A DNA stretch of 64,000 bases, taken from assembly GCF_057098645.1 (NCBI RefSeq), contig NZ_CM169472.1; one strand, written 5' to 3'. Both the position numbers and the translations under genes were made by a program. The notes below the pieces were generated by a model. It was not told the origin of the DNA. It did not search any database and worked only from the letters and a program-made list of their open reading frames with translations. Positions within the stretch are counted from its first letter, which is position 1. Each line of letters opens with the position of its first letter. Below, one piece after another: positions 49,422 to 63,150 of the stretch.

Positions 49422-50012
49422 TTACTGTTTCGGTCGCAGATTCTCATCAAATACCAGGCGCTGCCGGCCAGGTTCAACTTCCCGCAATGGCTCGACTTGA
49501 TGCAACGTCTGCTTACAGCGTGTCACCAGCACCTGATACTCATGCGTGCCCTGCTTTTTCCATGCCAGTTCCTGCTCACTAAGTTCACGAATCGCTTTGG
49601 CCGGGCTGCCGACAATCAGGTAATTAGCAGGCATTTCTGCTTTGGCTTTCACAAATGCGGATGCGCTAACAATGCTGTTCTCGCCAATCACCGCACCGTC
49701 CATCACTACCGCGTTCATTCCCACTAATGCATTGCGGCGGATAATGCAGCCGTGAAGGATAGCGCTATGACCAATATGTCCATCTTCTTCCACGACAGTA
49801 TCCTGCTCGGGAAAACCGTGCATAACGCAATTATCCTGAATGTTCGCACCATCTTTCACCACGATACGACCAAAATCGCCACGCAAGCTGGCATTTGGCC
49901 CAACGTAAACGCCCTTGCCGAGAATAACATCGCCGATCAATACCGCTGTCGGATGGACAAAGCTCTCTTCTGGCACAACCGGAGTCAGACCATCTATCTG
50001 GTAAATTGGCAT
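49422..50012 (-). CDS. paaY: PaaY, hexapeptide-repeat thioesterase / regulatory protein of phenylacetate catabolism
   Basis: 196-aa gamma-carbonic-anhydrase-like hexapeptide ORF; overlaps paaX 3' end. Confidence 0.85.
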
Positions 50013-50944
50013 AACGCCTCCTGTTCAATATTTAAGCCGCCAAAACGTTGAAAATACAGGCTTCCCGGCGCAGGCAGTTCACCGACCGAGGTTTCACCTT
50101 TTTCACTAACGAACGCTAAAGCAGCAGGCGCTACGCGCTGATAAATGTTGATACACAGCTGACGTGCCGTATGCCCTGCCCAGTGTGCCGGAAGCAACTC
50201 CTCCGGCAACAATGGGTCTTTAAGGACGACACGGCGATAAAAATGGATCAGTAAAAGCTGAATATGAAATGCACGCTCCGGGGTTAACTCGTCTGCCGTC
50301 TCTTTTAACAGCGGCACCAGCGGGCGGAATGACTGAATAAAGGTTTCGTACATGGCATTTTGTTCAGTTAAATGCCAGCACTCTTCCACTCTGGCACGCA
50401 GTGCTGCACGAGAAAGCGCCAGTGGTATTTGCGCTTCAAAACAAATCACGTTATCCGCCACACCCGCTTCATGCAAAAGTGTCTGTACATCCGCCAGTTT
50501 TTGCGACGGCGATGCCATCAGGCTGGGCGCCAGTGCACCAAAACCTTGCCAGATCAACTGCTTTTTGACATCAGCCAGCGTCGCTTTATCTAAACCTTCC
50601 GAGAGCAACAGGAGCCATTTACCATCCCATGCAGGTTGCTCTGCGCGATAAATTTTACTTTCTGCCCGTCGCGTCAGGCGCAAGCCTTTATCACTGAGGC
50701 TATAGAAACTGCGTCGCCCGATGCGGGAAACATCCAGCCAGCCTTCTTTATTAAGACGAAACAAAGCGGTGCGCACGAAACGCTCACCAAATCCCAGCCC
50801 TTCCAGCAAAGCAGCCAGACTACCCAGCCAGATTTCACCACCACGATGGGAAAGCGAATCACCATACAGAGAGGAGATCAAAGATGTGCCACTGACCGGA
50901 ACAGCGTTTACAGCATGTTGGATAAAAGTATCAAGTTTACTCAT
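49994..50944 (-). CDS. paaX: PaaX, phenylacetyl-CoA-responsive repressor of the paa operon
   Basis: 316-aa ORF of expected length. Confidence 0.85.
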
Positions 50945-51003
50945 TCGATTCAGTCTGTTGTTATTGTTGTGATTTATGAATCATAGCACAGGTCGTATCG
51001 ACT

Positions 51004-51037
51004 TCTGGCCCTGGCGCTTTACCCCACCAGGGCCAGA
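51004..51037. terminator. Terminator hairpin downstream of the paaK remnant
   Basis: 11-bp stem TCTGGCCCTGG / CCAGGGCCAGA with 12-nt loop. Confidence 0.5.
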
Positions 51038-51044
51038 CGACACA

Positions 51045-51299
51045 TCAGGCACCAACAATATTACGCAGATCAAACACCCGACACGCCTTGCCTTCTGAAC
51101 GCGGGATACTGCCACAGTTAACGATCATCACATCGGTAGAGATCCCCACCATCGACTTAATCCGATGGCGTAGCTGGTGGCACACCTGGCAACGCTGCTC
51201 ATGCGTCAATGTCAGGCTGCTTTCTTTCAGCTCTACTTTCACAGAAAGTGAATCAAGATGCCCCCGGCGGTTCACCTCCAGTTGGTAATGCGGCGATAA
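51045..51299 (-). pseudogene. paaK: paaK 3' remnant (phenylacetate-CoA ligase, last ~84 codons only)
   Basis: Frame encodes …LSPHYQLEVNRRGHLDSLSVKVELKESSLTLTHEQRCQVCHQLRHRIKSMVGISTDVMIVNCGSIPRSEGKACRVFDLRNIVGA*, which I recognise as the PaaK C-terminus; no upstream paaK sequence present. Confidence 0.8.
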
Positions 51300-60492: not shown

Positions 60493-60509
60493 CTTACGCG
60501 CGAACAAGA

Positions 60510-62009
60510 TTAATACCGTACACACACCGACTTGGTTTCACACCAACCGTCCAACCAGTCCGGGCCAAAATCACGGCCTGTTCCTGACTGCTTCATCCCA
60601 CCAAACGGTAAGTTAGCGTCAATTAAGGTATGGCTGTTTACCCACACCGTACCAGCCTGTAAGCGATCGCTATATTCCAGAGCCTGGGAGAGATTTTGCG
60701 TCCAGACGCTGGCAGTTAAGCCATATTCCGTGTCGTTTGCCAGTTGTAACGCCTCTTCTCCATCTGCTACTCGCACCAGGTTAACCACCGGACCAAACAC
60801 CTCTTCACGAGTTAAGCGCAATTTAGCATCGGGATTAACCACCAGCGTTGGCGCAACATAATACCCCTCTCCGGCTGGTCCACTCGACCCGCGAATCAGT
60901 TCTGCTTGCTGTGCCTGCGCATCGTCAAGGAATGAACGCACTTTGTCGCAGTGCGCACGAGAAACCAAAGGGTTAATCTGTGCAACAGGTGACATCCCCG
61001 GTCCCACTTGCAACGATTTTACCGCCTGCTCAAATCCACTAACCAGCGTGTCAAACAACGGCGCTTCAATATAAATTCGCGAACTGGCGGCGCATACTTG
61101 CCCCTGATTCAGGAAGCTTCCGGTCATCAAGCCTTCAATAACCCATTGCGGATCAGCATCTTTTAATACAATTGCCGGGTTTTTACCGCCCAGTTCCAGC
61201 GTTGCACGCGTCAAGCGATCTGCAGCAGTTCTGGCAATACCTTTGCCCGTCGCGGTTGAACCGGTAAAACTGATTTTCGCGACATGAGGATGTGACGTCA
61301 GGGCCGCGCCGCATACAGCACCTGACCCGGTGACGACATTAAAAACGCCATCAGGAATACCTGCCTCGCTGGCCAGTTCCGCCACGCGCAACATCGTCAG
61401 TGGCGTGGTTTCCGAAGGCTTAATCACGATTGAACAGCCTGCAGCCAGTGCTGGCATCACCTTCCACATACCAATCATCAATGGGAAGTTCCACGGCACA
61501 ATTCCCGCCACTACGCCAACCGGCTCTTTACGTGTCCAGGCCTGATAGCGCGCCCCCTGGGGTAAGGGAATCGACAAGTCCAGCGTCTTACCCGCAATTT
61601 TGGTCGTTAACCCGGCAGTATAACGCATCCAGTTCAGCGTACAGCCCACTTCAAAAGCACGGGAAATGGCAATTGACTTGCCTTGCTCCAGGGTTTCCAG
61701 TTGCGCCAGCTCCTCACTGTGCTGCTCAACCAGATCGGCAAAACGTAGCAGGATACGTTCACGCTCTGCGGGTAATCGCCCGGCCCAGCGACGCGAGACA
61801 AAGGCCCGCCAGGCAGACATTACTGCGTTATCTACATCCGCTTCGTTGGCATCAGCAGTTGATGCAATTTCTTGCCCGGTTGCCGGATCAAAGATCGCTA
61901 ACCGTTTTTCACTTTGTGCGGGGCCAGGACGACCATCAATATAAAGACCGTGTTGACGATCGAGAAACTGTTGGACCTGGCTTAATACTGCTACATACGG
62001 CTCTGTCAT
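60510..62009 (-). CDS. feaB: Phenylacetaldehyde dehydrogenase FeaB
   Basis: 499-aa aldehyde dehydrogenase; catalytic Cys context [16 protein letters not shown] motif. Confidence 0.9.
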
Positions 62010-62080
62010 CACTTTTCCTTATTATTTACCCAGTGTGATTTCAGTGTACGCAGCGACAAGAAAAGTCACTTTTTTCGCTG

Positions 62081-62153
62081 TGACATTCGCTTTGTCAGCT
62101 GTGACAAGCTCCGCAAATCGTGACAATAACCGCTTATGCCTCTATGCCTGACA
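62081..62153. promoter_or_regulatory. Array of phased TGACA repeats in the feaB–feaR intergenic region (candidate FeaR binding sites)
   Basis: GCTGTGACATTC, AGCTGTGACAAGC, TCGTGACAATAA, CCTGACAAGAC spaced about 19-28 bp apart, plus inverted copies. Confidence 0.4.
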
Positions 62154-62244
62154 AGACTTATTTCCTATAGTCAGGCTCATTAGCTTCGTTTATTGCAACA
62201 CAAATGCAACAATAAAAATACATTTCACAGAGCGACAACGTGCC

Positions 62245-63150
62245 ATGAACCCCGCAGTGGATAATGAGTTTCAGCAGTGGCTTTCCCAAATCAATCAGGT
62301 ATGCGGAAATTTTACCGGACGCCTGCTGACTGAGCGTTACACGGGTGTACTGGAAACGCATTTTGCCAAAGGACTAAAGCTGAGCACCGTGACAACCAAC
62401 GGGGTGAATTTATACCGCACCTAGCAGGAGGTAAAAGGCAGTGACGATGCCTGGTTTTACACCGTTTTTCAGCTTAGTGGTCAGGCGATAATGGAGCAGG
62501 ATGAGCGTCAGGTGCAGATTAGCGCAGGCGATATTACGTTACTCGATGCCTCACGACCCTGTTCGCTTTACTGGCAGGAGTCTTCTAAACAGATTTCATT
62601 ACTTTTGCCACGCACTCTGCTGGAACAATATTTTCCCCATCAAAAACCTGTCTGCGCAGAGAGACTGGCTGCTGACTTACCTATGGTGCAACTCAGTCAT
62701 CGCCTGTTGCAGGAGAGCATGAATAACCCGGCACTTTCTGAAACAGAAAGTGAAGCTGCGTTACAGGCGATGGTGTGTCTGCTGCGCCCGGTACTTCATC
62801 AGCGGGAATCTGTTCAACCTCGTCGTGAACGTCAGTTTCAAAAAGTGGTTACGTTGATAGACGATAATATTCGCGAAGAGATATTACGCCCGGAGTGGAT
62901 AGCCGCAGAGACGGGTATGTCAGTACGTAGTTTGTATCGAATGTTTGCCGATAAAGGTTTGGTGGTCGCGCAATATATTCGTAACCGTCGTCTCGATTTT
63001 TGTGCAGATGCAATTCGCCATGCCGCAGATGATGAAAAACTGGCAGGCATTGGCTTTCATTGGGGATTTTCCGACCAGAGTCATTTTTCAACGGTGTTTA
63101 AGCAACGCTTTGGGATGACGCCAGGCGAGTATCGACGTAAATTCCGCTAA
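62245..63150 (+). pseudogene. feaR: feaR (AraC-family activator of tynA/feaB) with in-frame premature TAG at 62422-62424
   Basis: ATG at 62245 gives MNPAVDNEFQQWLSQINQVCGNFTGRLLTERYTGVLETHFAKGLKLSTVTTNGVNLYRT*, then the same frame continues QEVKGSDDAWFYTVFQLSGQAIMEQDERQ… to the AraC HTH C-terminus. Confidence 0.8.

Follow-up and report, generated by a model that had tools for sequence, protein, structure and literature searches.

We analyzed a 64,000-nucleotide stretch of DNA from contig NZ_CM169472.1 (hereafter the window) that carries the Escherichia coli island for catabolizing phenylethylamine through phenylacetate to the tricarboxylic acid (TCA) cycle. The island comprises feaR, feaB, tynA, paaZ, paaA-K, and paaXY, and it lies between pdxI/ydbD on one side and ydbL/ynbE/ydbH on the other. 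TynA converts phenylethylamine to phenylacetaldehyde, and FeaB converts phenylacetaldehyde to phenylacetate. The regulator gene feaR, the oxidase gene tynA, and the segment from paaF to paaK each carry a disruptive lesion in the window. We consider it highly probable that the island is part-way through a neutral, stepwise decay, for which relaxed selection on an accessory locus is the best reading. Decay of this kind is ordinary and already understood.

Window positions 49000-64000 are ~100% identical to chromosomes of O145:H28 E. coli that produces Shiga toxin (STEC), such as RM13514, RM12761, and C325. The window organism is a natural and distinct strain of O145:H28 STEC. Isolates of this serotype come from cattle, food, water, and patients, which contradicts the suggestion, made in an original prediction from the sequence alone, that the decay belongs to a host-restricted lineage resembling Shigella.

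The 17 island genes of E. coli K-12 were aligned to the window and compared codon by codon. Gene order and orientation match K-12, and the retained genes show 96.3-99.7% nucleotide identity. The set of 17 open reading frames (ORFs) is incomplete: paaG, paaH, paaI, and paaJ are gone, only 255 nt of paaK are left, internal stops interrupt feaR and tynA, and the C-terminus of paaF is replaced. Twelve of the 17 genes are kept in O145:H28, nine of which are intact in the window. The earlier description of feaB, paaZ, and paaABCDE as intact was accurate; these genes, along with paaX and paaY, are full length relative to K-12 and have no gaps or internal stops. The features of the locus, including annotations from the NCBI Prokaryotic Genome Annotation Pipeline (PGAP), are as follows.

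62245-63150, plus strand: feaR pseudogene, amber stop at codon 60; PGAP note 'internal stop'
60510-62009, minus strand: feaB, phenylacetaldehyde dehydrogenase, intact; 499 aa with 5 amino acid differences from K-12
58178-60451, plus strand: tynA, periplasmic copper amine oxidase, interrupted by an opal stop at codon 669; product 668 of 757 aa
55885-57930, plus strand: paaZ, intact, 681 aa
52027-55600, minus strand: paaA, paaB, paaC, paaD, and paaE, phenylacetyl-CoA epoxidase genes, intact
51272-52030, minus strand: fusion ORF beginning with paaF, 252 aa; annotated as paaF, WP_001292342.1
51300, no strand: deletion junction, 4,956 bp lost relative to K-12
51045-51299, minus strand: paaK remnant, the last 255 of 1,314 nt; PGAP 'partial, missing N-terminus'
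49422-50944, minus strand: paaX (repressor) and paaY, intact
49193-49365, no strand: 173-bp inversion in the pdxI 5' region, outside the pathway

PGAP thus already marks feaR and the paaK remnant as pseudogenes.

Lesions in feaR, tynA, and the paaF-paaK segment

Alignment to K-12 bore out, position for position, the three lesions that had been proposed: an amber stop in feaR, an opal stop in tynA, and a deletion running from paaF into paaK. The feaR lesion is a TGG-to-TAG change at 62422-62424 that converts Trp60 to a stop codon (W60*). FeaR from K-12 matches the Pfam domain AraC_binding_2 at residues 11-184 and a helix-turn-helix (HTH) domain at residues 218-298. Regulators of the AraC/XylS type carry the sensor and the HTH in a single polypeptide, and this arrangement is lost in the window. 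The stop at codon 60 falls inside AraC_binding_2, ahead of the HTH, and costs FeaR ~70% of its sensor domain and the whole HTH. The sole in-frame restart is the native Met83, which opens an ORF of 219 aa at 62491-63150. We used exact-protein look-ups across contigs from NCBI, Logan, and ENA to trace such products, and the 219-aa fragment is present exactly on at least 1000 contigs.

The tynA lesion is a TGG-to-TGA change at 60182-60184 (W669*). TynA is the E. coli copper amine oxidase (ECAO, PDB 1OAC), for which mature numbering equals precursor numbering minus 30. The Cu_amine_oxid Pfam match (PF01179) spans residues 337-750 (414 residues), and the stop removes the last 82 of these. The tyrosine precursor of the topaquinone cofactor, in the motif NYDY (495-498), and the copper ligands of the HQH motif (554-556) both precede the stop. 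Upstream of it, TynA shows only five differences from K-12, none of which lies at NYDY or HQH. The third copper ligand, His719, lies beyond the stop in the signature TTGTTHVARAEEWP (residues ~714-727, TxGxxH(V)xxxEExP), and the catalytic domain is therefore incomplete. Because His719 is lost, the truncated TynA cannot form its copper site.

The third lesion is a 4,956-bp deletion in which nt 1-731 of paaF (52030-51300, minus strand) abut nt 1059-1314 of paaK (51300-51045, minus strand). The deletion takes the 3' end of paaF, all of paaG, paaH, paaI, and paaJ, and nt 1-1058 of paaK (81% of the gene). Its junction has a single nucleotide of microhomology (A) and no remnant of an insertion sequence (IS). 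The resulting fusion ORF encodes residues 1-244 of the 255 in PaaF followed by a new 8-residue tail, YRRITNWR. The prediction that the whole paaF-paaK segment is inactivated therefore holds for paaG-J and most of paaK and fails for paaF, which is hardly damaged and which PGAP annotates as intact. The fusion protein is present exactly on at least 1000 contigs.

We determined how widely each lesion occurs by counting exact or contiguous matches among 5,426 complete E. coli genomes. A 61-mer containing the feaR amber is present exactly in 26 genomes, all of which are O145:H28 or near-identical strains. A 101-mer spanning the deletion junction is contiguous in 25 genomes, all among the 26 feaR-amber carriers. 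These two lesions are lineage-wide. The tynA stop allele is found in none of the 5,426 complete genomes. The exact 668-aa TynA product is nevertheless recorded in ~21-34 public assemblies: on 24 contigs that were read it is a called protein (34 index blocks), and the look-ups in NCBI, Logan, and ENA place it on 21 contigs. One of the Logan assemblies, SRR8751452, matches window positions 48178-64000 with 0 mismatches over 15,823 bases. Base 60184 is the sole point difference between the window and C325 across 49366-64000; the nine other private single-nucleotide polymorphisms (SNPs) of the window are three synonymous, three nonsynonymous, and three intergenic changes. The tynA stop marks a small sub-clade.

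Order of the lesions and a model for stepwise decay

The lesions form a nested series and differ greatly in age; both their distribution and their nesting are seen directly in the genomes. Strain UTME-3 is the only complete genome that has the feaR amber and lacks the paaF-paaK deletion. Its segment from the 3' end of paaF to paaJ differs by at least 1.5% from every other genome, with no match closer than 98.5%. We considered whether UTME-3 is a recombinant rather than a strain in the pre-deletion state and rejected this possibility; a segment so distant from every other genome is unlikely to be a recent import. UTME-3 looks like a kept ancestral state, and feaR was therefore probably hit before the deletion occurred. 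UTME-3 also has island lesions of its own: a +1 insertion near paaF codon 10 that shifts the frame (positions ~10735-10800 of L002, its copy of the locus) and an IS629 (positions 4883-6192 of L002).

Further hits are found in the main O145:H28 clade (clade 1), to which ~20 of the 25 deletion carriers belong as judged by match length. A -1 frameshift in paaC (window position 53824) and a stop codon in feaB (Q151*, window position 61559) are present in seven of the seven clade 1 genomes sampled (RM13514, RM9872, RM11626-C1, FWSEC0002, RM12522-C8, 16003, and 95-3192). Clade 1 also has two SNPs in the divergent promoter region between paaZ and paaA (window positions 55743 and 55815). All of the clade 1 alleles are absent from the window. 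In sum, one young clone, whose members differ by ~10 private SNPs per 64 kb, has accumulated in this island at least six or seven disruptive events, each separate from the others.

The IS629 in UTME-3 sits in the spacer between paaJ and paaK, within the stretch that the O145:H28 deletion removed, and shares 100% identity with the IS629 copy carried by the window. O145:H28 is reported to carry both iee and IS629 (PMC5567499, on which we rely for the presence of iee). We also located the iee gene in O157:H7 Sakai. Deletions accompanying IEE-promoted excision of IS629 are described in enterohemorrhagic E. coli (EHEC) by Kusumoto et al. (2011), as summarized in PMC9943667. The O145:H28 deletion resembles these events in the UTME-3 IS629 within the deleted interval, the co-occurrence of iee and IS629, and the minimal microhomology at the junction. 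It differs in that the UTME-3 insertion may post-date the split between the lineages and in that illegitimate recombination of any kind could leave 1 nt of microhomology. An IS629/IEE route is plausible but unproven, its evidence being circumstantial, and plain illegitimate recombination fits equally well.

The genes that were hit are functionally connected. FeaR activates both tynA and feaB (PMC4640556), and it responds to the aldehydes made by TynA (PMC11542736). The product of PaaK, phenylacetyl-CoA, serves PaaABCDE as substrate and also acts as the inducer that frees PaaX (PMC4951805, Table 1). We propose that decay proceeded in three steps. First, feaR W60* would have removed the AraC-type activator needed by tynA and feaB, leaving the upper pathway silent. 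Second, the 4,956-bp illegitimate deletion would have removed paaG-J and most of paaK, such that phenylacetyl-CoA is no longer made and the lower pathway is blocked; the intact PaaX would keep the remaining paa genes repressed after the loss of paaK. Third, the useless and probably silent survivors would have gained branch-specific hits, namely tynA W669* in the sub-clade of the window and, in the main clade, the paaC frameshift together with feaB Q151*. Because FeaR activates tynA, the tynA stop probably struck a gene that was already silent. With feaR and paaK lost, the surviving genes would be free to drift, and because the clone is so young, intact survivors need no selective explanation. 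Published knowledge of the K-12 pathway predicts this silencing and also a phenotype, which is that O145:H28 would not grow on phenylethylamine, tyramine, or phenylacetate.

This model alters how the lesions relate to one another. They had been described as independent and convergent. Several separate events of different mutational kinds have indeed struck one pathway, and the events are independent as mutations. They are not independent under selection, since FeaR activates tynA and responds to the aldehyde produced by TynA. Instead of converging, the hits came in sequence and are linked by function. The original prediction had also left open whether selection was relaxed or negative. The additional hits that sister branches have acquired for themselves make relaxed selection the best reading, and nothing we examined favors selection for loss over neutral decay.

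We asked whether disruptive events cluster in the island. Events common to at least two sampled genomes all fall in the pathway (4 of 4, p = 0.006). A 1-bp insertion found in strain 12E115 where ydcY meets ydcZ (window position 5970) may be a change to the ydcY C-terminus shared across clade 1, and counting it as shared gives 4 of 5 (p ~0.02 by our own arithmetic). Many O145 genomes match window positions 1-25000 over 25,001 bases. In a long-term comparison with K-12, the pathway has 43 amino acid differences among 260 nucleotide differences, whereas the ratio of nonsynonymous or nonsense to synonymous changes within the lineage is 8:3 (Fisher p = 1e-4). The K-12 comparison shows past purifying selection on these genes. 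The within-lineage ratios of the pathway and of its flanks (13:5) both contrast with it. A comparison of nonsynonymous and synonymous substitution rates (dN/dS), which had been suggested as a check, has no power at this locus. The ratios of 8:3 and 13:5 do not differ (Fisher p = 1.0), and dN/dS cannot discriminate because the clone is too young.

Several observations weigh against this model. Considered alone, the window places three of its five disruptive events in the pathway, a share that does not reach significance (binomial p = 0.13); the other two are an IS629 insertion in ynbD and the 173-bp inversion. IS insertions disrupt flanking genes in the O145:H28 clone at a similar per-kb rate, and the clade 1 flanks were sampled from a single genome. 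The equal ratios in the pathway and flanks neither support nor contradict relaxed constraint. The order of feaR followed by the deletion depends on one genome, UTME-3. Finally, a literature search for O145 phenylethylamine or phenylacetate phenotypes and for O145:H28 expression or growth found none.

Alternative explanations and comparison with related lineages

We compared the O145:H28 island to the same locus in other E. coli. DNA of paaF-J is present in 3,135 of the 5,426 complete genomes. The locus is accessory, and 42% of complete E. coli genomes lack it. In O157:H7 Sakai, only ydbA fragments lie between ydbL and ydbC, and the genes from feaR to paaY are absent. In O157, O-island 67 (OI-67) takes the place of the cluster, which O55:H7 lacks as well (Cooper et al. 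2014, PMC3893438), and tynA was found in 0 of 28 O157:H7 isolates (Elovaara et al. 2015, PMC4640556). These losses resemble the one in O145:H28 in their location between ydbL and pdxI/ydbC, in the related EHEC-1 background, and in the predicted functional outcome, a loss of phenylethylamine and phenylacetate catabolism. They differ in how the island was lost. O157:H7 lost all 17 genes as one block and kept fragments of ydbA, whereas O145:H28 acquired point mutations and an internal deletion, kept 12 of the 17 genes, and lacks ydbA. Beside the island, ynbG and the ydbA autotransporter pseudogene, which lie between paaY and pdxI in K-12, are cleanly absent in O145:H28 (window 49366-49421; positions 663-9604 of the comparison locus L021). 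Because O157:H7 Sakai has ydbA fragments and O145:H28 has none, the two lineages carry different, non-nested deletions at a hotspot.

These parallels bear on the possibility that loss was adaptive. If catabolizing aromatic amines or phenylacetate were a disadvantage in the niche of EHEC, for instance because TynA makes periplasmic H2O2 and toxic aldehyde, knock-outs would be repeatedly favored, as for an antivirulence gene. The loss of feaR through paaY from the related O157:H7 and O55:H7 by a deletion unlike that of O145:H28 is consistent with this explanation, as are the several hits within one young clone and a report, cited in PMC4640556, that phenylethylamine lowers O157:H7 counts on beef. 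We nevertheless consider adaptive loss unlikely. Once feaR and paaK were lost, extra hits would add no benefit, and their accumulation is what neutral decay predicts. In addition, 82% of non-O157 EHEC are tynA positive (PMC4640556), bovine-associated strains commonly carry the paa locus (PMC4951805), and the locus is missing from 42% of complete genomes regardless of pathotype. A more specific version, which we regard as rather improbable, is that loss was selected across EHEC-1, by block deletion in O157:H7 and O55:H7 and by the feaR knock-out followed by an IS629/IEE-mediated internal deletion in O145:H28. If it were true, TynA/FeaR activity, or the sensing of phenylethylamine or tyramine, would be a liability in the bovine or food-chain niche.

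A second alternative is that the island retains residual function. Of the stop codons used by E. coli, UGA is the leakiest, and read-through by tRNA-Trp could restore Trp669 of TynA. FeaR could re-initiate at Met83, in an ORF that still matches AraC_binding_2 and the HTH and that GenBank formerly labeled 'Transcriptional activator feaR'. The nine genes that are still intact in the window might then be kept for another role. This alternative is very unlikely. The sensor-domain match covers 174 residues, 72 of which would be missing from a product starting at Met83; the ligand pocket of FeaR is lined in part by residue 83 itself (PMC11542736), and the ATG is preceded by only a weak Shine-Dalgarno-like CAGG. 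The deletion is irreversible and has removed the CoA ligase, isomerase, thiolase, and dehydrogenase. The knock-outs of feaB and paaC in the main clade show that neither gene is being maintained, and the youth of the clone makes intact survivors the default expectation.

Finally, sequencing or assembly artefacts are almost certainly not the explanation. Although no complete genome has the tynA stop or the 173-bp inversion, 25-26 complete genomes obtained by different laboratories and in different countries share identical feaR and deletion alleles, truncated TynA appears in NCBI, ENA, and Logan assemblies, and the nine other private SNPs look natural. An artefact or planted change as the source of the tynA stop and inversion was ruled out by independent assemblies, one of which is identical to the window.

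Neutral, stepwise decay thus remains our preferred explanation, and other E. coli offer further points of comparison. Goldstone et al. (2016, PMC4951805) characterize the paa locus as a genomically heterogeneous stretch flanked by core genes. They report that internal deletions of the locus recur among phylogroup A and mastitis strains of E. coli, with a tynA-paaZABCDE deletion and, in DEC6A and DEC6B, a paaA-paaK fusion. These cases resemble O145:H28 in having internal partial deletions and gene fusions. O145:H28 differs in the end points of its deletion (paaF and paaK) and in the nonsense mutations in the upper pathway that accompany it.

Shigella and other clonal pathogens accumulate pseudogenes and undergo pathoadaptive gene loss. 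Decay in O145:H28 resembles the Shigella type in that mixed inactivating mutations have struck a catabolic pathway of an IS-rich clonal pathogen. O145:H28 is distinguished by not being host-restricted and by decay at one locus rather than genome-wide reduction, and an antivirulence effect of the lost function is unsupported.

These results have modest practical consequences; beyond annotation hygiene, their significance is small. Phenylacetate degradation is listed as present in O145:H28, with no defect noted, in PMC3893438. Scoring the cluster as 'present' overstates metabolic capacity, and O145:H28 should instead be scored as a predicted non-user of phenylethylamine, tyramine, and phenylacetate. 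The feaR amber, the paaF-paaK deletion, and then either paaC/feaB or tynA W669* provide nested sub-clade markers for an outbreak-tracked pathogen. The locus also illustrates, cleanly and on a small scale, how the loss of a regulator or first enzyme may leave the rest of a pathway open to neutral decay.

Other rearrangements in the window

The IS629 in ynbD is 1,310 bp long, inserted at ~codon 137 (window 40804-42113), and flanked by a GAC target duplication. It is absent at this site in C325, RM12761, Z1323HEC0399, and 12E115. Other genomes have private IS disruptions in the flanks, including an IS3-family element in ydcF of C325 (positions 14503-15716 of its locus copy, L005) and ISEc8 in aldA of RM12761 (positions 29041-31353 of L006). 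These insertions show a high background of IS-mediated gene disruption in the clone.

The 173-bp inversion at 49193-49365 is absent from K-12 and all 5,426 complete E. coli genomes and has no flanking inverted repeat. It lies on the tynA-stop haplotype and is present in the window and one matching assembly, SRR8751452, and is therefore real. Promoter and terminator scans around it gave nothing informative. One breakpoint falls in the loop of a terminator hairpin 3' of paaY, 57 bp from the paaY stop codon, and splits the terminator. The other falls 2 nt 5' of the pdxI ATG, such that the whole pdxI 5' region, including a Shine-Dalgarno-like sequence, is flipped.

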